DNA of 55,433 bases from a virus (lineage: Duplodnaviria; Caudoviricetes), in IMG/VR virus record IMGVR_UViG_3300043449_001455, positions 1-55,433 of that record; one strand, given 5' to 3'. A model generated the notes under the pieces. That model saw nothing but the letters and a program-made list of their open reading frames with translations, did not search any database and had not been told where the DNA came from. The position numbers and the translations under genes were made by a program. Positions 20,650 to 55,433 of this stretch are shown piece by piece (position 1 is the first letter of the stretch; each line of letters opens with the position of its first letter).

Positions 20650-20725
20650 TGGTGAGCCGGGAGGGATTCGAACCCTCGGCCAGTTGATTAAAAGTCAACT
20701 GCTCTACCCCTGAGCTACCGGCTCC
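20650..20725 (-). tRNA. tRNA-Lys (UUU), 76 nt with encoded CCA
   Basis: GGAGCCG acceptor stem, D-arm AGCTCAGGGGTAGAGC, anticodon arm GTTGA-CTTTTAA-TCAAC, T-loop GTTCGAATC, 3' ACCA. Confidence 0.95.
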
Positions 20726-20967: not shown

Positions 20968-22107
20968 ATGAAGCGTGACTGGAAGCCCGATACGAAGGTG
21001 GCCGGCCTGGGCCTGATGGTCATGCCGAGCGGGGTGTCGACCTGGTATCTGCGCTACCGCGAACCGGGCGGCAAACAGCAGCACCACAAGATCGGCCGGG
21101 CCGATGTCCTCAACCGCACGCTGGCCCGCGAGGAGGCGCAGAAGATCCTCGTGGCCGCCGCCCAGGGCAAGTCGCCCACCAGCGCCCGCCAGGAGCTGCG
21201 CACGGCCCCGACCATGGCCGACCTGTACCGGCGGATGGTCGCCGAGCACTACCCGAAACTGCGCCCGGGCACCGCAAAGAACTACAAGAGCATCTGGGAC
21301 GTTCACATCATCCCCAAGCTCGGCCGGCACAAGATCCAGGCGGTCACCAGCGCCGACGTGATGAAGCTGTTGATGCGAATCCGGCCGATCCAAGCCAACC
21401 GGTGCCTGGCAGTGCTGCGCAAGGCGTTCAACCTCGCGATCCTGTGGCAGCTGCGCCCCGACAACCCCTGCTCCAAGGTGCCGAGCAACACCGAGCGCAA
21501 GCGGCGGCGCTATCTGTCAAACGAAGAGCGGCAGCGGCTGGTGGCTGCACTGGATGCGATAGCCACGTCGCCACTGCGGTGGCGTTTCGCGCAGCTGGTG
21601 CGGTTGCTGATGCTGACGGGGTGCCGGGTGGGTGAGATCTGCCGCGGCAGGTGGGATTGGGTCGACGAGAAGGCAGGGCTGATGGTGATCCCGCCAGAGA
21701 GTCACAAAACCGGCCAGAAGGTGGGCCACGAGCGCGTAGTGCATATTCCTCCTGCAGGAATTCTCATCTTGAGAGAACTGCGTCTCAAATCGAATACACA
21801 GTGGATTATCGCAGGGGATGGCGACGGCCACCTAGTGGGGTATCAGAAGCTCTGGGAGGAGTTGATGCGCATCGCTGAAATCAAAAATTTCCGCGTGCAT
21901 GATGCTCGGCATCACTGGGCATCGGTGGCGATCACCAAGGTCGGCTTGACGCTGCCACAGGTCGGCAGCCTGCTTGGCCATGCCAGCCCGCTCACCACCA
22001 GCCGCTATGCCCACCTGCTGGAAGATGGCGCACAGGCGATGGCCGGAGCCGTTGCCGATCAGATTGGCGTCGGATCGTCGCCGTCCTGGAAGCGACAGGC
22101 GATGTAG
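20968..22107 (+). CDS. int: Tyrosine integrase with N-terminal arm-binding domain
   Basis: TGCRVGE (R), HDARH (HxxR), LLGH, RYAH (Y); GGAGGG RBS. Confidence 0.95.
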   Translation: MKRDWKPDTKVAGLGLMVMPSGVSTWYLRYREPGGKQQHHKIGRADVLNRTLAREEAQKILVAAAQGKSPTSARQELRTAPTMADLYRRMVAEHYPKLRPGTAKNYKSIWDVHIIPKLGRHKIQAVTSADVMKLLMRIRPIQANRCLAVLRKAFNLAILWQLRPDNPCSKVPSNTERKRRRYLSNEERQRLVAALDAIATSPLRWRFAQLVRLLMLTGCRVGEICRGRWDWVDEKAGLMVIPPESHKTGQKVGHERVVHIPPAGILILRELRLKSNTQWIIAGDGDGHLVGYQKLWEELMRIAEIKNFRVHDARHHWASVAITKVGLTLPQVGSLLGHASPLTTSRYAHLLEDGAQAMAGAVADQIGVGSSPSWKRQAM

Positions 22108-50062: not shown

Positions 50063-51916
50063 TCACCATTGGCGAACGAACGACCGCTTTGCGGGCTTAT
50101 TCGATCTTAGCGGCGCCTTGCGCTCCCTTTCTACCGGCTTTTCGAGCCGTTTCTCCAGCTGATCCCACATTGTTCTGCGGTCGTACCGCTGATACATCCG
50201 ATTTAGCGCTGCATACGCATACACCAGCTCATCCAGTGCTTCGTTGCGCTGGCTCGATTTCTTCACCCAAACGCGCTCTGGATACCCGCGCACGAACCGG
50301 GTGATCTGCTTCTCTGCTGTCAGCTCCTCAAAATACTCTTTTCCAGCATCTGCGTAAAAGTGCAGGAAGCCTGGGCCGGGCTCGTTGTGCTTTAGTCGGC
50401 CAAACAGCAGGCTTTTCACTGTGTCGCCACCCACCGGATACACCTCGGCGCCTTTCTTCAGCGCCTTGCCCTTGTAGTTCAGGTCGACCTTGGTGGGCTT
50501 GCCGATCGGTGGCTTGCCCTTCTGGCTCTGACCCTTGATCGCGATCACGCCCAGGTTCTGCCGTTCGCGGGCGTACTGGTACACCTCCATCGTGTGGTGG
50601 CCGCCGGAGTCGATGCAGACCACATCCGGCCGCAGCTCGCCGCCCATCGCATGCTTGAACGGCCGCATGATCAGCTCGTCCAGCTGCTTCCACGGCTCTG
50701 GCCGGCTTGGGTCGCCATGGATCACCTGCCGGTCGACCAGCCAGCCTTCCTCCTCGCGGCCCCAGGCCCACACGCTCAGGCTCAGCCTGTTGTCCTGCAC
50801 GTCGCAGCCGATCGTCAGCACTGATGCCTCAGCCGGGATCATCCGCTTCTCGTAGAACTCGGCCCGCTCCAGCAGGCTGTCGGCGCCCACCTTCGCCGCG
50901 TAATCGTCCTCCCAGCTTTCGCCCAGCACGGTGTTGACAAACGTCTTCAGTGCCTCGGGGTCGCTCTTTGCCTCTAGGAACTCGTCCCGCAAGTTCTCCC
51001 AGCTGGCGTTCGGGCTGTAGCTGTAGGCCGCCCAGATGTGGAACGAAGCGTGCTTGCCATTGCCCGGTGCAGTCGCCCGCCATTCGCCGCGCTCGACCAT
51101 CCAGCGCTTTTTGCTATGCGGGATCAGCACCCCGCATTCCTCGCACACGTAATGCACCGGTGAATACGGATCGTCCCACCGCATGTGCGCCCACTTGAGG
51201 TACTGCATGTGCCCGCAATCAGGACACGGCACGAAATACCGGCGCTGGTCGCCCTGCGCGAACAATCGCTCGATCCGGCTTGCATCTTTCAGTGTTGGTG
51301 TGCTGCCGGCGATGATCTTGCGGTTCCAGTAATACTCTGTCCGCCTGATGCCCAGCTTGATCTGGTCGCCCTCGGGCCCGGCACTCGGCGGGTAGCCGTC
51401 CGTTTCGTCGAACATCACAATCCGGCGGCTCACACGGCGGAAGCCCCGCGGGCTGTTGGCGCCCACCAGGCCCAGCGTTCCGCCCGGATACTGCTTCTGC
51501 AGGATCGTGTTGGCGCCGTCCTTCGCCTTGCTATCGCTCACCAACCCCTTCAGCACCGGCACGTCGCGCAGCATTGGCGCGATCTCTTCTTTCGAGTAGC
51601 CCTGGGCGTCCTCAATTGTCGGCTGCACCAGCATCATCGGGCAGGGGTCCTGGTGGATGTGAAAAGCGATGCAGGCGTTGAGGCACTTGGTGTAGCCCAC
51701 CCGGGCGCTCTTCATCACCGAGATCTGCTCGATCGCCGGATCAGTGATCGAGTCCATGATTCCCTTCTGGTACGGCAGCGTGTGCCACCGGCCAGCCTCG
51801 GCGCTGCTCTCGGCCGACAGGAAGAAGTACCGGTCGGACCACTCCGACAGGCTCAGCTTCTCCGGTGGCCTCCATGCCCGCAGCGCAGACGCAGCCAGTT
51901 GCGCAACTTCAGCCAT
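50063..51916 (-). CDS. terL: Terminase large subunit (lambda gpA family)
   Basis: KSARVGYT, FDETD, GSTPT, GCDVQ, IDSGG, RNEALD. Confidence 0.95.
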   Translation of the reverse strand: MAEVAQLAASALRAWRPPEKLSLSEWSDRYFFLSAESSAEAGRWHTLPYQKGIMDSITDPAIEQISVMKSARVGYTKCLNACIAFHIHQDPCPMMLVQPTIEDAQGYSKEEIAPMLRDVPVLKGLVSDSKAKDGANTILQKQYPGGTLGLVGANSPRGFRRVSRRIVMFDETDGYPPSAGPEGDQIKLGIRRTEYYWNRKIIAGSTPTLKDASRIERLFAQGDQRRYFVPCPDCGHMQYLKWAHMRWDDPYSPVHYVCEECGVLIPHSKKRWMVERGEWRATAPGNGKHASFHIWAAYSYSPNASWENLRDEFLEAKSDPEALKTFVNTVLGESWEDDYAAKVGADSLLERAEFYEKRMIPAEASVLTIGCDVQDNRLSLSVWAWGREEEGWLVDRQVIHGDPSRPEPWKQLDELIMRPFKHAMGGELRPDVVCIDSGGHHTMEVYQYARERQNLGVIAIKGQSQKGKPPIGKPTKVDLNYKGKALKKGAEVYPVGGDTVKSLLFGRLKHNEPGPGFLHFYADAGKEYFEELTAEKQITRFVRGYPERVWVKKSSQRNEALDELVYAYAALNRMYQRYDRRTMWDQLEKRLEKPVERERKAPLRSNKPAKRSFVRQW

Positions 51917-52451
51917 CTTTCTCTGCCAGCTCCTCCAGCGCTTCCCGGACGATGTCCTCCAGGATCGCAATCTGGTCCTGGGTGAGATCGGGGATCCGCT
52001 GCTTGGCCTTTGACGGCACACCGAGCACCTTGGTGCGGCTGATCGTGATCACCTCCACCCACTGCGCCTCGACATCCGCGGCCCGCACCAGCAGCCCTTC
52101 CTTCTCCTTGCGCTCCAGCTCCAGCAGCTCGGCCTTGAGGTATTCAGTGCGCGCGCGGCTCTCGTTGTACTCGGGGACAATGTCCTCGGGTTCTGGAGAC
52201 GCGAGTGATCGTTGGGCTGGCTTGGGCCGCGCTGGAGGAAAGGCAGTCTCGCCGGCCGGCGGCTTTGGACCCACGCCGATCTTGGCCATGGTTTTGGCGA
52301 ACCAGTCCTCGCGCAGCGTGTCGGACTGAATCAGCTCCTTGCCTTCAGCCGTGCGCACGACCGGAAGGCGACCCTGGCTGATCGCCTTGTAGACGGCAGT
52401 CCGGGACACTCCGAGCGCCGCGGCGGCTTCTGACTTGGTGATGAGCGGCAA
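51909..52451 (-). CDS. terS: Terminase small subunit
   Basis: N-terminal HTH; YNESRARTE...KEGLLV...IVREALEEL (Nu1-like); TTG start. Confidence 0.85.
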   Translation of the reverse strand: MPLITKSEAAAALGVSRTAVYKAISQGRLPVVRTAEGKELIQSDTLREDWFAKTMAKIGVGPKPPAGETAFPPARPKPAQRSLASPEPEDIVPEYNESRARTEYLKAELLELERKEKEGLLVRAADVEAQWVEVITISRTKVLGVPSKAKQRIPDLTQDQIAILEDIVREALEELAEKDG

Positions 52452-52640
52452 GGTATGCCGGTGGTGTTGACCAATGTTACGGGTTTACAGTCCTGGTTGA
52501 CACCAAGCCCAAAACCTAGGCGCAGAGGCTACTATGGCCGGTTGCCTTGTTTTCGGGGAAAGGGGAGATATTGCGCGAAATCGAGTTGAGGCTCATGAGA
52601 CTCACACCAACTTCGGCAAGTTGTGCCTAGGAAAACATCG

Positions 52641-52682
52641 AGATCCGAATCTACCCCCGAGTCCCTCACGTCGGGAGGACCC
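52641..52682 (-). other. Predicted cos site
   Basis: GGGTCCT (lambda cosQ heptamer) at 52682-52676; 23 nt further, the near-symmetric 12-mer AGATTCGGATCT (52652-52641), matching lambda cosQ-to-cohesive-end spacing; upstream of terS. Confidence 0.65.
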
Positions 52683-52784
52683 GCGAATGAGAATCAGTCG
52701 CAACAAAGGGGCCAGGGCCTGCCCCAGGCCTGCCCCTGGGGTGGCCATTCGCTGAGCTCACCCCAGGCAAAGGGCAGGGGGGTG

Positions 52785-52884
52785 AGATACAACAAAGGCC
52801 CCGCACAATGGCAGGCCCTGAGATACAACAAAGGCCAGGCATGATGCCTGGCCCAGATACAACAAAGGGGCCAGCTGGCCCCCT
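52785..52884 (-). terminator. Three tandem terminator-like units with an identical tail
   Basis: AGATACAACAAAGG at 52785, 52821 and 52855, each adjoining a different GC-rich hairpin; partial fourth copy near 52701. Confidence 0.6.
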
Positions 52885-52908
52885 GCGGTTTGGCTGTGAT
52901 GCCTGGGC

Positions 52909-53991
52909 TCAGGCCCAGACTAGTTCAATCGATCCATCTGCCAGGGCCTGAGGGCCAGGGGTGGCCTGCAGGCTGAAGGGGTCAGCGATGGCACGGTCCG
53001 CCCCTTTGCTTACCTTTGTGCGCAGTATCACAGCCACCCCCTGAGGCTCTAACCATCGATTATCAGACTCATCCCCTGCAATGGCAGGGAGGGTAACTGT
53101 TTGGCCCTTACGGGTGAGCCTGAGGGCCACAGGCCAGGCCTGGCCCTTGGCCAGCAGCACAGGGGCAGCCAGCCTGAAACCTGCCAGGGCAGCTGCCATG
53201 GCGTCTGCCACAGCTGAGGGCCTGTCAGCTGCCAGGCTGGCTGTGACATCCCAGCCAGCTGCCCTTTGTGCTAAAAGGCCAGTCCTGCCCTGCAGGGGGG
53301 CCTTGGAATAGTCGTATAGGGCCATGCTGCCATCGCTCAGGGGCAGGGCCAGGGCCTGGGCTAGGTTCATGGATTCCCCAGCCACAGCCTGCAGGCCATA
53401 ACGTATCCGCAGGGCCTGGGCCTCCTGGGGGCTCAGGCTGAACCGTGCCAAATGGTGCGGGTGATCGTCTGTGCCGCGCAGTCTCACAGCCAAGGGCAGG
53501 CCCAGGGCCTGAGCCTTTGCGTAATGCCGGCCAATGGCCCACAGGAGGGCCCGTTGATACGTGGCAGGCTCAGCCAGCATGGCAAGGGTGCGTCTGCCCC
53601 TGGCAGCTGCCACAGCCTGGCTCAGGCCACCATGGCCAGCCCAGTTAAGGCATCCCATTGCACAGCCAGGGGTGGCCCAGGGGCAGCCATTGCGGGCCAG
53701 GCCCTTTGCCAGGAGGCCCTCAGTCTCAGCCAGGGCCCTCAGGGCAGGGATGAAGGCCCGCGATGGGATGCCGGCATTCTCAGGGGTGATGGCAGCTGCC
53801 AGGGCCTTATGGGGCAAGTGATGAAGAATCACAGGGAGGGCCTGGGCTGAGCCCTTGGCCAGTTTGGCATTGTCGTCTGTCAGCAGGCCAGGGAGGGTGA
53901 GGCTGAACCGTGCCAGGAGGGCTGCCACGTCTGCAGGCAGACGGGAGGGGGCACAAGCGCGGGCCTGGGCTGTGGTTTGGATGGCAGGCAT
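52909..53991 (-). CDS. GP88-family (radical-SAM-like Fe-S) protein
   Basis: CPWATPGCAMGCLNWAGHG, VRLRGTDD, LYDYSK, GDESDNRW; start could be 54018. Confidence 0.75.
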   Translation of the reverse strand: MPAIQTTAQARACAPSRLPADVAALLARFSLTLPGLLTDDNAKLAKGSAQALPVILHHLPHKALAAAITPENAGIPSRAFIPALRALAETEGLLAKGLARNGCPWATPGCAMGCLNWAGHGGLSQAVAAARGRRTLAMLAEPATYQRALLWAIGRHYAKAQALGLPLAVRLRGTDDHPHHLARFSLSPQEAQALRIRYGLQAVAGESMNLAQALALPLSDGSMALYDYSKAPLQGRTGLLAQRAAGWDVTASLAADRPSAVADAMAAALAGFRLAAPVLLAKGQAWPVALRLTRKGQTVTLPAIAGDESDNRWLEPQGVAVILRTKVSKGADRAIADPFSLQATPGPQALADGSIELVWA

Positions 53992-54050
53992 GGAAGGAAG
54001 GGGGATAAGGGTGAGCATTGTCTGGGCTTCCTGTTTGGAATGGCCCTTTG

Positions 54051-54101
54051 TAGCCATTGGCCACAATTCAGTCAACAGAAATATGTGGCCATTGGCCACA
54101 T
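54051..54101. promoter_or_regulatory. Duplicated palindromic operator-like site
   Basis: ATGTGGCCA-T-TGGCCACAT (54083-54101); GCCATTGGCCACA repeated at 54053-54065. Confidence 0.55.
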
Positions 54102-54107
54102 TCTGTG

Positions 54108-54308
54108 CTAGTGGCGATCTGAGATCAGCCAGGCCTGGGCCTGAGGCTCAGGGGGCAGCTGGCTCGATCGGATGGCCCGTCTGAGGGCCTCCTGGGCAGC
54201 CTCCTGGGCAGCGTAATGCTGCAGGATGGCTGCCAGGTCTGGCCTGCCAGGGGTGGCCCATCCGATGGGCTGGCCCTGGCTGTTTGTGACGCGTTCTAGC
54301 TCAGGCAT
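54108..54308 (-). CDS. Hypothetical protein (66 aa)
   Basis: ATG overlaps the upstream stop (ATGCCTGA). Confidence 0.55.
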   Translation of the reverse strand: MPELERVTNSQGQPIGWATPGRPDLAAILQHYAAQEAAQEALRRAIRSSQLPPEPQAQAWLISDRH

Positions 54309-54453
54309 GGGGGGCCAGCTTAAAAGTGTGATCCTGGCCCTTAATACGTTGCAGGAGGGCCAGCCTGCGCTCAGCCACAGCCACAGGCCGAGCCTGGGGG
54401 ATGGCAGGCTGCCATCCCTGCTGAATGCCGCGCCAAATCAAAACAATTGCCAT
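54301..54453 (-). CDS. Hypothetical protein (50 aa; below ORF-track cutoff)
   Basis: MAIVLIWRGIQQGWQPAIPQARPVAVAERRLALLQRIKGQDHTFKLAPHA; pyrimidine-rich leader. Confidence 0.55.
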   Translation of the reverse strand: MAIVLIWRGIQQGWQPAIPQARPVAVAERRLALLQRIKGQDHTFKLAPHA

Positions 54454-54489
54454 GGGAGGGGTAAGGGTAAGGGTTGAAAGGGTGAGGGC

Positions 54490-55104
54490 TCAGGCTGTGG
54501 CCTCACGGGCCAGGGCTAGCCTGCGGATTCCGTCAGCCTGCCAGACCAGCTGGCGGGCCATGCTGCGGATATCTGCAGCAGAACGGGCCAGGGCTGGAAT
54601 CCTGGCCAGGGCCTGCAGGGCCTCAAGGGCCTCAGTCTCGAGTTCAGCGGCCTGGGCCCTGAGCTCAGCAGGGGTGGCAGGGGGGCGAATGGTGGGCAAC
54701 TGAGGGGCAGGGCCAGCCTGGGCGGGAGGGGCAGGGGGCAGGGCCTCACCTGGCAGCACAGGCCGGGCCTGGGCCCAGGGGCCAGGCTCAGAGACTGCGC
54801 TGAACCTGGCCCCCTCAGGGGGCAGGGCCTGGGCCACAGCCTGGGCCACAGCCTGGGCCCTGGCAGCCCTGGCACCCCTGGCAGCCTTAATGGCAGCCTG
54901 GCCAGCTGTGGCAAAGGCCTCTGCAGGGGTGCGAGGGGTAGGGGCATCAACGGCCACCACGCGATAGGCATTGTGGGGGCTGTGCTGAGCCCAGATTGCC
55001 GCGCGACGTTCTGCGCATTCGCGCGGCTCAGGGCCCAGGCCAGTAGGGCCCCAGGCCCCCACGCGGTTCTGCTGAACTTCAATCCGGCAAATTTCAAAAG
55101 CCAT
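54490..55104 (-). CDS. Hypothetical Ala/Pro-rich protein (204 aa)
   Basis: ATG after a pyrimidine-rich leader; small N-terminal domain, linker, C-terminal coiled coil. Confidence 0.6.
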   Translation of the reverse strand: MAFEICRIEVQQNRVGAWGPTGLGPEPRECAERRAAIWAQHSPHNAYRVVAVDAPTPRTPAEAFATAGQAAIKAARGARAARAQAVAQAVAQALPPEGARFSAVSEPGPWAQARPVLPGEALPPAPPAQAGPAPQLPTIRPPATPAELRAQAAELETEALEALQALARIPALARSAADIRSMARQLVWQADGIRRLALAREATA

Positions 55105-55280
55105 AAGAGGTAAGGATTAATGCCCCCAAATACTGAAGCCCAGGCCACCCCTAGCCCAGGGCCAGTGTGCCGGTTTTCTGATTGGCCTAGTTGCCACAGG
55201 CTGGCCACCCCTCGCGAGGGTGCGGACCTGGGGTGGCATTTCACCCCATGCATAAGGAGGGCCACAGCCTGGCCACCCCT

Positions 55281-55433
55281 GCCGAGCGACGCACACCTAA
55301 CTGTGAGCCGAGCGACGCACACCTAACTGTGAGCCGAGCGACGCACACCTAACTGTGAGCCGAGCGACGCACACCTAACTGTGAGCCGAGCGACGCACAC
55401 CTAACTGTGAGCCGAGCGACGCACACCTAACTG
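55281..55433. repeat. 26-bp tandem repeat array (right part)
   Basis: Five exact copies plus 23 nt of the unit seen at 1-155. Confidence 0.97.

Follow-up and report, generated by a model that had tools for sequence, protein, structure and literature searches.

A CpG-depleted GP88 cassette at the chromosome end of an uncultured freshwater phage is probably an allele swapped in from another lineage

The DNA analysed in this study (hereafter the window) is the 55,433-bp IMG/VR record IMGVR_UViG_3300043449_001455, an entire metagenome-assembled genome of a phage of the class Caudoviricetes, and our concern is its segment 52683-55280, a GC-rich stretch that is strongly depleted in CpG. Our results suggest that this segment is probably a moron-like but allelic, terminator-insulated cassette that came from another lineage and was swapped in together with its composition. 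The accessory cassette, which would consist of a GP88-family enzyme gene and three small open reading frames (ORFs) and would end in four tandem terminators, is predicted to fill the final 2.6 kb of the chromosome as carried in the virion and to border directly on cosQ/cosN; the phage is temperate and its packaging is of the lambda type. The composition edge would then be a recombination junction at which the backbone took up a foreign cassette allele as one unit, and the CpG-poor, GGCC-rich signature would have arrived with that allele and not have been made by recoding on this backbone. The cassette has definable boundaries, alleles are swapped at it among near-identical backbones, and CpG content follows the tree of the cassette and not the backbone.

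The initial annotation of this DNA had described the segment as depleted in CpG yet rich in GC, and this description was borne out, as were the hand counts behind it, which we reproduced exactly (4 CG and 13 GGCC in 53101-53400, 6 CG in 54661-54960 and 29 CG in 50581-50880). The segment has 81 CG, a CpG observed/expected ratio (o/e) of 0.30, 96 GGCC sites and a GC content of 0.649, and the remainder of the window (1-52682) has 5092 CG, an o/e of 1.01, 498 GGCC sites and a GC content of 0.618. When 500 pieces of equal length were taken elsewhere in the window, their CpG o/e was 1.018 +/- 0.068 with a minimum of 0.881, placing the segment at z = -10.6, and their GGCC count was 24.6 +/- 4.9 with a maximum of 42, placing it at z = +14.5. 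The left edge of the anomaly is sharp (52683-52700), and the 27 bp from the predicted cohesive-end sequence to the segment are CpG-normal, with 3 CG and an o/e of 0.84. The bias had also been said to span four genes and the DNA between them. This is correct for the non-coding parts, where the o/e is 0.22 (52683-52908, which also holds 10 GGCC) and 0.24 (55105-55280), but a 180-bp patch at 54925-55104 departs from it, being CpG-normal at an o/e of 0.80. Compared with the backbone, the dinucleotide values of the segment are 0.29 against 1.01 for CG, 1.57 against 1.22 for TG/CA, 1.23 against 0.84 for CC/GG, 1.32 against 1.02 for AG/CT, 0.55 against 0.86 for AC/GT and 0.65 against 1.07 for GA/TC. 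The Karlin delta* (x1000) between this island and the backbone is 279, the maximum among 39 backbone pieces of the same size being 139; between the island and a freshwater Cyanobacteriota metagenome-assembled genome (MAG) of 69% GC it is 215. A search of the composition for avoided motifs, which the initial annotation had expected to find, pointed to no particular one, since 15 of the 16 NCGN contexts are reduced to 0.09-0.56 of their backbone frequency and ACGT alone is spared (0.89).

The CpG loss hits synonymous sites, codon junctions and non-coding DNA, and the Arg CGN codons are retained. Per 1000 codons, the cassette has 53 CpG at codon positions 1-2 (Arg CGN), where the backbone has 60; positions 2-3 have 11 in the cassette and 79 in the backbone, and codon junctions 36 and 171. 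The force behind the loss works on DNA or RNA dinucleotides, not on proteins. The coding part contains 72 CpG, and the same four proteins re-encoded with the codon usage of the backbone would contain 225 +/- 9. Permuting the cassette's own synonymous codons gave 134 +/- 5 CpG with a minimum of 119 in 1000 permutations, so the avoidance of CpG at junctions exceeds what codon choice accounts for. The codon shifts themselves are large, with CCT at 0.56 in the cassette and 0.10 in the backbone, GCG at 0.01 and 0.24, and ACA at 0.34 and 0.07.

The claim that the segment is rich in GGCC stands as a count, but most of the excess can be traced to its proteins being rich in Ala, Gly and Pro. The coding part has 76 GGCC sites, where backbone codon usage predicts 51.7 +/- 5.4 and permutation of its own codons 59.8 +/- 4.1 with a maximum of 71. 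In the islands of related loci, described below, the GGCC o/e is 1.59 (backbones 0.97) under a first-order expectation, where GATC, ATCA and other words score higher, probably owing to gene homology; under a second-order Markov expectation it is 1.01 (backbones 0.84). There is thus no special excess under the higher-order expectation, and we do not claim GGCC as a selected motif. Oriented Chi-like words were also considered and rejected, as the strand-biased 8-mers (GCCTGGGC, 12 copies against 2) are explained by coding repeats for Ala-Gln-Ala-Leu.

The swap itself is seen in close relatives of the window. Five IMG/VR loci (L011, L013, L016, L028 and L039) carry terS and terL genes that are 80-88% and 91-92% identical to those of the window, and they align with it at 80-82% nt identity until 52659-52682, where homology stops; backbone homology, as seen in L011, L028 and L045, resumes at about 89-412, past the 26-bp tandem array that forms the far edge of the cassette. 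The GP88 alleles of the five loci are 51-58% identical to that of the window and have a CpG o/e of 1.22-1.61. The CpG-poor cassette is shared by a sister phage, L001, an independently obtained contig of 55,495 bp that stems from another sample and has an o/e of 0.24-0.47 per 500 bp in the cassette, and the two phages are 89-90% identical at the nt level in the cassette and 67-85% identical in the flanks. A different study supplied a third variant of the cassette, with about 95% identity, on a 2,557-nt contig of run X2. The presence of the same junctions in the independent L001 and in the X2 variant excludes chimeric assembly, which had been named in advance as a possible source of the composition. 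Relatives with normal CpG had likewise been set beforehand as the observation that would speak against recoding, and such relatives exist, with homologous genes at the same end and an o/e of 1.08-1.61. All backbone relatives carry an allelic cassette at the locus, and only parts of the 204-aa gene vary by presence and absence. A scan of metagenomes gave no relative above 70% identity among the matches listed.

To place the cassette in a wider context, 142 loci with GP88 homologues were gathered from IMG/VR, JGI/ENA metagenomes and GTDB, some contigs being present twice (L001/L004; L089 = L002), and composition was compared in those that are not identical to one another and come with 1.5 kb or more of backbone, 53 in all. 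In each of the 17 loci whose long flanks were profiled, GP88 lies within a compact island; this measures 2-4 kb and closes about 0-800 bp past the stop codon, and the window is alike. In 8 distinct loci terS and terL come after the island; otherwise the contig ends there. The GP88 gene has a G+C content above that of its backbone in 52 of the 53 loci (median +0.14), and GGCC density is also above the backbone in 52 of 53, while for the CpG o/e 32 loci have the gene below its backbone and 21 have it above. Across these loci the o/e of GP88 runs from 0.28 to 1.85 (1.86 among all genes listed) and that of the backbones from 0.62 to 1.12. The extra G+C lies chiefly at codon positions 1 and 2 (medians +0.13 and +0.15). 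The G+C content at position 3 (GC3) of GP88 is about 0.63-0.90 in most of the 41 loci compared, despite a backbone GC3 of 0.40-0.83, and three low-GC phages have 0.26-0.54; it is above the backbone in 33 of the 41 loci and below it in the window (0.67 vs 0.77). This pattern fits a separately circulating gene pool and not a process that raises GC at a DNA end, and GC-biased conversion at the end is ruled out by GC3 as the general cause. We infer that the cassettes form a gene pool which moves among differently composed cos phages faster than its members drift toward the composition of their backbones.

In a FastTree phylogeny of 105 GP88 rows the CpG o/e goes with the clades. A branch of length 0.46 carries the window and L001 and lies inside a clade of 20 rows (support 96), whose other members have a CpG o/e of 0.57-0.97 and lie on backbones of 0.56-0.61 GC that are not of the window's type; the backbones in this clade have a CpG o/e of 1.04-1.11. 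Over 106 alleles, the CpG o/e has a Spearman correlation of -0.86 with TG/CA and -0.91 with AG/CT, values that are descriptive only because the rows are related and the measures arithmetically linked.

Several features of the wider set of loci are of interest in their own right. Backbones of 49-53% GC (L003, L023, L054, L089 = L002 and others) have a dramatic GC jump at the cassette, as in L002 where 0.70-0.77 compares with 0.48-0.51, and in these lower-GC loci the jump is over by about 400 bp past the GP88 stop at most, shortly before terS. In phages of 32-36% GC, GGCC is nearly limited to the terminal GP88 region, with 14 of 19 sites in L136:10120-11195 and 60 of 65 in L125:5448-9932; many of these sites fall in GGC-CGN or GCC codons for conserved Gly-Arg or Ala and in hairpin stems, and CpG in the same regions is enriched (1.36-1.85), not depleted. 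When 49 loci are pooled, the maximal-order o/e of palindromes in islands and backbones is 1.01 vs 0.92 for 4-mers and 0.94 vs 0.83 for 6-mers, the island value exceeding the backbone value in 39 of the 49 loci at both lengths; in the window the figures are 1.09 vs 0.97 and 0.90 vs 0.82. The backbones under-use 4- and 6-bp palindromes, as is usual in phages under restriction pressure, and the terminal cassettes hardly do so.

The initial annotation had placed the segment at the physical chromosome end away from terS, and this is supported by the terminal overlaps of linear relatives and by the ends of Logan contigs, the evidence on the cos site being contig ends and not read ends. There are four linear relatives, with a rated completeness of 100% in three and 71% in the fourth, and in all of them terS is 155-332 bp from one contig end and the GP88 gene 99-901 bp from the other. 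Their terminal overlaps are 13 nt exact (G001), 13 nt exact (G002), 24 nt with 1 mismatch (G003) and 12 nt with 1 mismatch (G004). The predicted 13-nt cohesive-end sequence of the window (cosN overhang; ATCCGAATCTACC on the + strand) lies at 52643-52655 and is homologous to the exact overlap of G001. Among Logan contigs, one from run X3 has its end precisely at 52655 and another, from run X4, begins precisely at 52643, the two runs being from two studies; they hold small shares of the stretch and were used solely for the positions of contig ends, not for habitat, and the uncovered part in run X1 (52578-52690) was not used as evidence. A cosQ-like heptamer, GGGTCCT on the minus strand (AGGACCC on the + strand), is found at 52676-52682, where backbone homology ends, and the window has just 3 copies of it. 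The layout GGGTCC(T/C), exactly 20 nt and then the overlap recurs in G001, G002, G004 and the window, and this fixed spacing in three of the four relatives agrees with the position first proposed for cosQ.

We take the sequence of lambda cosQ and its role in the termination of packaging to apply to this heptamer by analogy. The likeness to lambda cos includes a gpA-type TerL and a TerS with a helix-turn-helix (HTH) domain that adjoin the site, a cohesive sequence of 12-13 nt, and GGGTCCT beyond the nick at a fixed spacing; the difference is that cleavage here is deduced from contigs and sequence. In lambda, packaging proceeds from cos through Nu1 and A, and the opposite end is packaged last and ejected first. 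By this analogy the segment end would be packaged last and ejected first in this phage too. The statement to that effect in the initial annotation is sound in that the segment abuts cos opposite terS, with the order of entry taken over from lambda. The resulting cos map for an uncultured group of freshwater and marine phages, in which 20 nt separate a 13-nt end from the GGGTCCT heptamer, can be tested.

The cassette resembles the morons of lambdoid phages such as the HK97 gene 15 element (Cumby, Davidson and Maxwell 2012, PMC3594210), as far as that paper's description extends, in being discrete, of odd composition, provided with terminators, horizontally exchanged and carried by a temperate phage. 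Morons are described there as having a GC content unlike that of their neighbours and their own promoter and terminator. The window's cassette differs in occupying an allelic site beside cosQ, in having a core gene that is present in hundreds of phages and in that no promoter was found, and its dinucleotide deviation (CpG o/e 0.26-0.30 at 65% GC) far exceeds a plain difference in GC. We infer that the cassette would be expressed as an independent unit. As to how the CpG o/e fell to 0.26-0.30, our leading guess is a long stay of the lineage in unsampled CpG-losing phages or hosts, with loss by mutation, because TpG/CpA goes up as CpG goes down (1.57 vs 1.22), a rise that is partly expected arithmetically. 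Alternatively, the loss could come from a force specific to the cassette, for instance selective pressure where the DNA enters or DNA modification tied to GP88. There is a likeness to the genome-wide CpG loss seen where bacteria possess a CpG methyltransferase, as Mycoplasma penetrans does with M.MpeI (cited in PMC11282364, as far as its account goes), which is also a general depletion with a rise in TpG/CpA; unlike that case, the loss here is confined to 2.6 kb of GC-rich DNA and no C5-methylase domain was found in the phage, though such an enzyme could have acted in a past host.

A number of points weigh against a swap from another lineage as the origin of the segment. No CpG-poor donor was found: the lowest CpG o/e of the 53 backbones is 0.62, in a 32% GC phage that itself has a CpG-rich cassette, and inheritance from a CpG-poor genome is accordingly a conjecture. 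Each CpG-poor cassette seen sits in a CpG-normal backbone, a pattern that could also be explained by a force peculiar to the cassette or to where it lies. The closest GP88 homologues, nine proteins (P0001-P0009) that are 81-92% identical and lie on contigs of at most 7.9 kb, were compared as proteins only, and the tree was made by FastTree only, from related rows whose correlations are not independent counts. The cassette is not additional DNA in the manner of classical morons, as an allele occupies the site in every relative. The near-absence of GP88 from cellular genomes leaves expression from a prophage unsupported, and no sigma-70-like promoter was found at 55105-55280, the sole match being inside the GP88 gene, with a consensus that may not be that of the host. 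A 60-kb sample of the 69% GC freshwater Cyanobacteriota MAG has a CpG o/e of 0.83.

The initial annotation had proposed that the segment is a first-ejected leader of 2.6 kb from which CG-containing restriction or sensing motifs have been removed by recoding in place, so that anti-defence or entry genes can act before the rest of the chromosome enters. We consider this anti-restriction leader unlikely, and it fails the tests run here. In favour of it, the segment is located at that physical end of the chromosome which is opposite terS, its CpG is gone wherever the proteins permit and from the non-coding DNA as well, and the locus is hypervariable and swappable, as loci in an arms race often are. 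In the part of PMC10644984 that deals with T5, T5-like restriction needs sites in the region transferred first, and phages in general become sensitive through sites close to the end that is injected first. Like the first-step-transfer region described there, the cassette is terminal, should enter first, contains small genes of unassigned function and has repeats and hairpins at its border, which are reminiscent of the many repeats found where T5 transfer stops. However, T5 has terminal repeats of about 10 kb, in contrast to the terminal overlaps of 12-24 nt found here, and the 13-nt cos ends without long terminal repeats give no indication of a two-step entry. Recoding in place is also at odds with the close-backbone relatives, which bring CpG-rich alleles (o/e 1.08-1.61) to the same end, and with the 21 of 53 loci where the terminal gene is richer in CpG than its backbone. 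The depletion is general over 15 of 16 NCGN contexts (ratios 0.09-0.56) and lacks motif specificity, and 4- and 6-bp palindromes are less avoided in the terminal cassettes than in the backbones at 39 of 49 loci. The CpG-normal patch of 180 bp persists untouched inside the cassette and is missing from L001 and from a variant in run X1. The genes are read toward the end, so that their 5′ ends, and any promoter, would enter last. The part of the review PMC11282364 drawn on here names no bacterial defence that targets CpG and notes that phages tend to match the CpG content of their hosts. It is similarly doubtful that, throughout a group of cos phages, the terminal GP88 cassette evolves as a compartment apart, a first-in, terminator-insulated leader whose dinucleotides, poor in CpG in some lineages and rich in others, are set by what the entering end meets in a given host or by DNA modification through its own radical-SAM-like enzyme, with cassette swaps that would retune the phage to a new host.

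A process acting locally, by virtue of position or of the cassette's own enzyme, was given little credence. It might be a radical S-adenosylmethionine (SAM)-like modification by GP88 near cos, or recombination and repair focused on the end, that skews mutation in the terminal few kb of every phage of the group. The anomaly does always coincide with the terminal GP88 cassette and, in the 18 profiled loci including the window, is over within some 400 bp of the end of the gene; CpG-poor cassettes were never seen on CpG-poor backbones, the GP88 model resembles those of Gp37/Gp68-like proteins, whose presumed membership of a radical SAM family is taken up below, and the RecT and PDDEXK exonuclease of the phage act on DNA ends. 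Such a process is opposed by the abrupt change of signature at the swap junctions and its travel with the allele, by the CpG-normal patch inside the cassette, by the lack of any gradient with distance from the end, and by the GC3 of GP88, which is not above that of the backbone in high-GC phages and is lower in the window. The GP88 fold, moreover, has no PDB match at E <= 0.001 and its cysteine spacing is non-canonical. Tuning of the cassette to the tRNA pool of a host for high expression, with CpG loss as a by-product, would agree with the strong shifts in CCT, GCG and ACA, but we regard it as very unlikely, as the non-coding DNA is equally depleted (o/e 0.22-0.24) and as the 72 CpG observed compare with 134 +/- 5, and never fewer than 119, predicted from the cassette's own codon usage. 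The abrupt change of composition in a record assembled from a freshwater metagenome could also suggest a chimera, or direct capture from a cellular genome that has such a composition throughout. This we hold to be highly improbable: the same junctions occur in the independent contig L001 from another sample, the proteins belong to a phage family (phrog_1617) with their nearest Atlas clusters 94-100% viral, only 4 loci occur among the genomes of 185,579 cellular species (one genome each), and no sampled genome shows the signature.

CpG abundance depends strongly on G+C content, according to the part of PMC11282364 that treats this relation, and a CpG o/e of 0.26-0.30 in prokaryotic virus DNA of 65% GC, sharp-edged and limited to one cassette, lies far off that usual dependence. 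At 52 of 53 related loci the GP88 cassette occupies the presumed last-packaged end and differs in composition from its backbone, with a CpG level between 0.28 and 1.86 depending on cassette lineage. If fast exchange of cassettes is all that is involved, these phages of 32-65% GC offer a clean natural example of a gene pool spread across them; if selection or modification at the entering end is involved, they would point to a new layer of phage-host interaction.

The segment holds four ORFs, all on the minus strand. Read on that strand, the order is the 26-bp array, 176 bp of non-coding DNA, ORFs of 204, 50 and 66 aa, a pair of GCCATTGGCCAC elements, the GP88 gene, the hairpins and GGGTCCT. The non-coding tail of the cassette (52683-52908, minus) contains four tandem terminator-like hairpins at 52884-52865, 52854-52832, 52815-52800 and 52725-52708, each followed by TTTGTTG. 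A terminator scan found 6 terminator-like sites, compared with 1.9 +/- 1.4 in shuffled sequences, and four of them are between the GP88 stop and cosQ. The tail also has 4 copies of the 9-mer CAACAAAGG, where 0.40 are expected, and a 36-bp repeat. The GP88-family gene (52909-54018, minus, 369 aa) has a start shared with its homologues; its reading frame is open to 54099, and the longer start there is probably not used. Between the GP88 start and the 66-aa gene lie the two copies of the palindromic element GCCATTGGCCAC, about 25 bp apart (54050-54101), one of which scores as a hairpin (54101-54083); the pair is a candidate operator, hairpin or attenuator.

The 66-aa ORF (54108-54308, minus) matches phrog_14769 at 4.6e-6, is 94% identical in L001 and has weaker relatives at 5 further distinct loci. 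The 50-aa ORF (54301-54453, minus) is 96% identical in L001, and profile searches against Pfam, PHROGs, NCBIfam and PADLOC gave no family match for it. The 204-aa ORF (54490-55104, minus) has an Ala/Pro-rich C-terminal part with a CpG o/e of 0.22, and its first 60 codons (54925-55104) make up the CpG-normal patch. Against the sister L001 it gives no protein match and only 49 bp of alignment, the first 60 codons being wholly missing there. A second variant present in run X1, the sample in which the window is best represented, at about one quarter of the depth of the window's own, skips 54487-54727 and 54777-55101, the same arrangement as in L001, so two variants of the cassette co-occur in one sample.

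The upstream non-coding DNA (55105-55280) has three + strand copies of the 10-mer GGCCACCCCT, which occurs seven times in the window against 0.17 expected, every copy being in or next to the cassette. One + strand copy directly abuts the array at 55271-55280 and an inverted one lies at 306-315. Identical copies of GGCCACCCCT code for the peptide ATPG at 52957-52966 and 53668-53677 in GP88 and at 54249-54258 in the 66-aa ORF. The repetition may be due to chance in DNA of skewed composition or to a shared DNA site.

The GP88 protein matches Pfam PF17338 at 29 bits (cut-off 24.4) and phrog_1617 at 8e-23, and it has 557 homologues at E <= 0.001. In an alignment of 20 members, 19 match PF17338, and Cys139, Cys146 and Cys150 (Cx6Cx3C) are invariant in all 20; RLRGTDD and GDxxDxRW motifs are present as well. 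An AlphaFold2 (AF2) model has a predicted local distance difference test score (pLDDT) of 80.5. Searched against the PDB, the fold gave no match at E <= 0.001, the weak ones (E >= 0.019) including several to barrel enzymes, and a profile search of PDB sequences gave no match to GP88. In BFVD it matches models annotated as GP88 and as Gp37/Gp68-like, with E values from 1e-13 to 1e-11 (Gp37/Gp68-like 1.4e-11), and radical SAM models score there at E 0.4-0.6 only. The Pfam score above cut-off, the three invariant cysteines and the structural similarity in BFVD thus align the protein with the GP88 (PF17338) and Gp37/Gp68-like phage proteins. The Gp37/Gp68 family presumably corresponds to DUF5131. 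The cysteine spacing of GP88, Cx6Cx3C, differs from the canonical CX3CX2C of radical SAM enzymes. In the part of PMC9477430 that covers these families, DUF5131 is listed as a radical SAM family and shares a megacluster with spore photoproduct lyase, which is an enzyme acting on DNA. Searches of NCBIfam and PADLOC gave nothing meaningful for the four cassette proteins, a GP88 protein query of GenBank phages gave 3 weak partial matches only, and a DNA query of GenBank phages with the segment gave no match. A literature search for PF17338, or for 'Gene product 88' with 'phage', found no paper. Each of the four GP88 loci of the cellular genomes lies on a MAG contig of small size.

Both ends of the window fall within one 26-bp tandem array (unit GCCGAGCGACGCACACCTAACTGTGA, at least 6 copies, 55281-55433 continuing as 1-155), and for this reason the record carries the class of direct terminal repeats. 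The sister contig L001 reads straight across this junction, so the ends of the window are a cut in a circular assembly, not physical ends. The phage, which occurs in freshwater metagenomes, is temperate as judged from its genes, and its packaging genes are lambda-like. The gpA-type large terminase (terL, 50063-52021, minus) matches PF05876 at 1e-82 and PF20454 at 3e-95, and the Nu1-like small terminase with an HTH domain (terS, 51909-52451, minus) matches phrog_57 at 5e-26; the nearest terminases in GenBank, from Roseobacter phages and Synechococcus phage S-LBS1, are less than 46% identical. No C5 (PF00145), N4/N6 or Dam-type methylase domain was found among the phage proteins, and the link to a cyanobacterial host with a GGCC methylase that the initial annotation had drawn is not established. 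Besides RecT and the PDDEXK exonuclease, the genome encodes a helicase, a VRR-NUC protein, ThyX and a lysozyme. A tyrosine integrase gene (20968-22107) adjoins a tRNA-Lys(TTT) gene (20650-20724), and this region is likely to be attP; a tRNA match could point to the host, and in comparison with four MAGs the region matched at just 77-83%, which is uninformative. After the 26-bp array comes an AT-rich stretch (160-420) with 18-bp repeats at 232-275 and 26-bp repeats at 354-407, and the array and these repeats together have a layout that resembles iterons near an origin or a complex control region.

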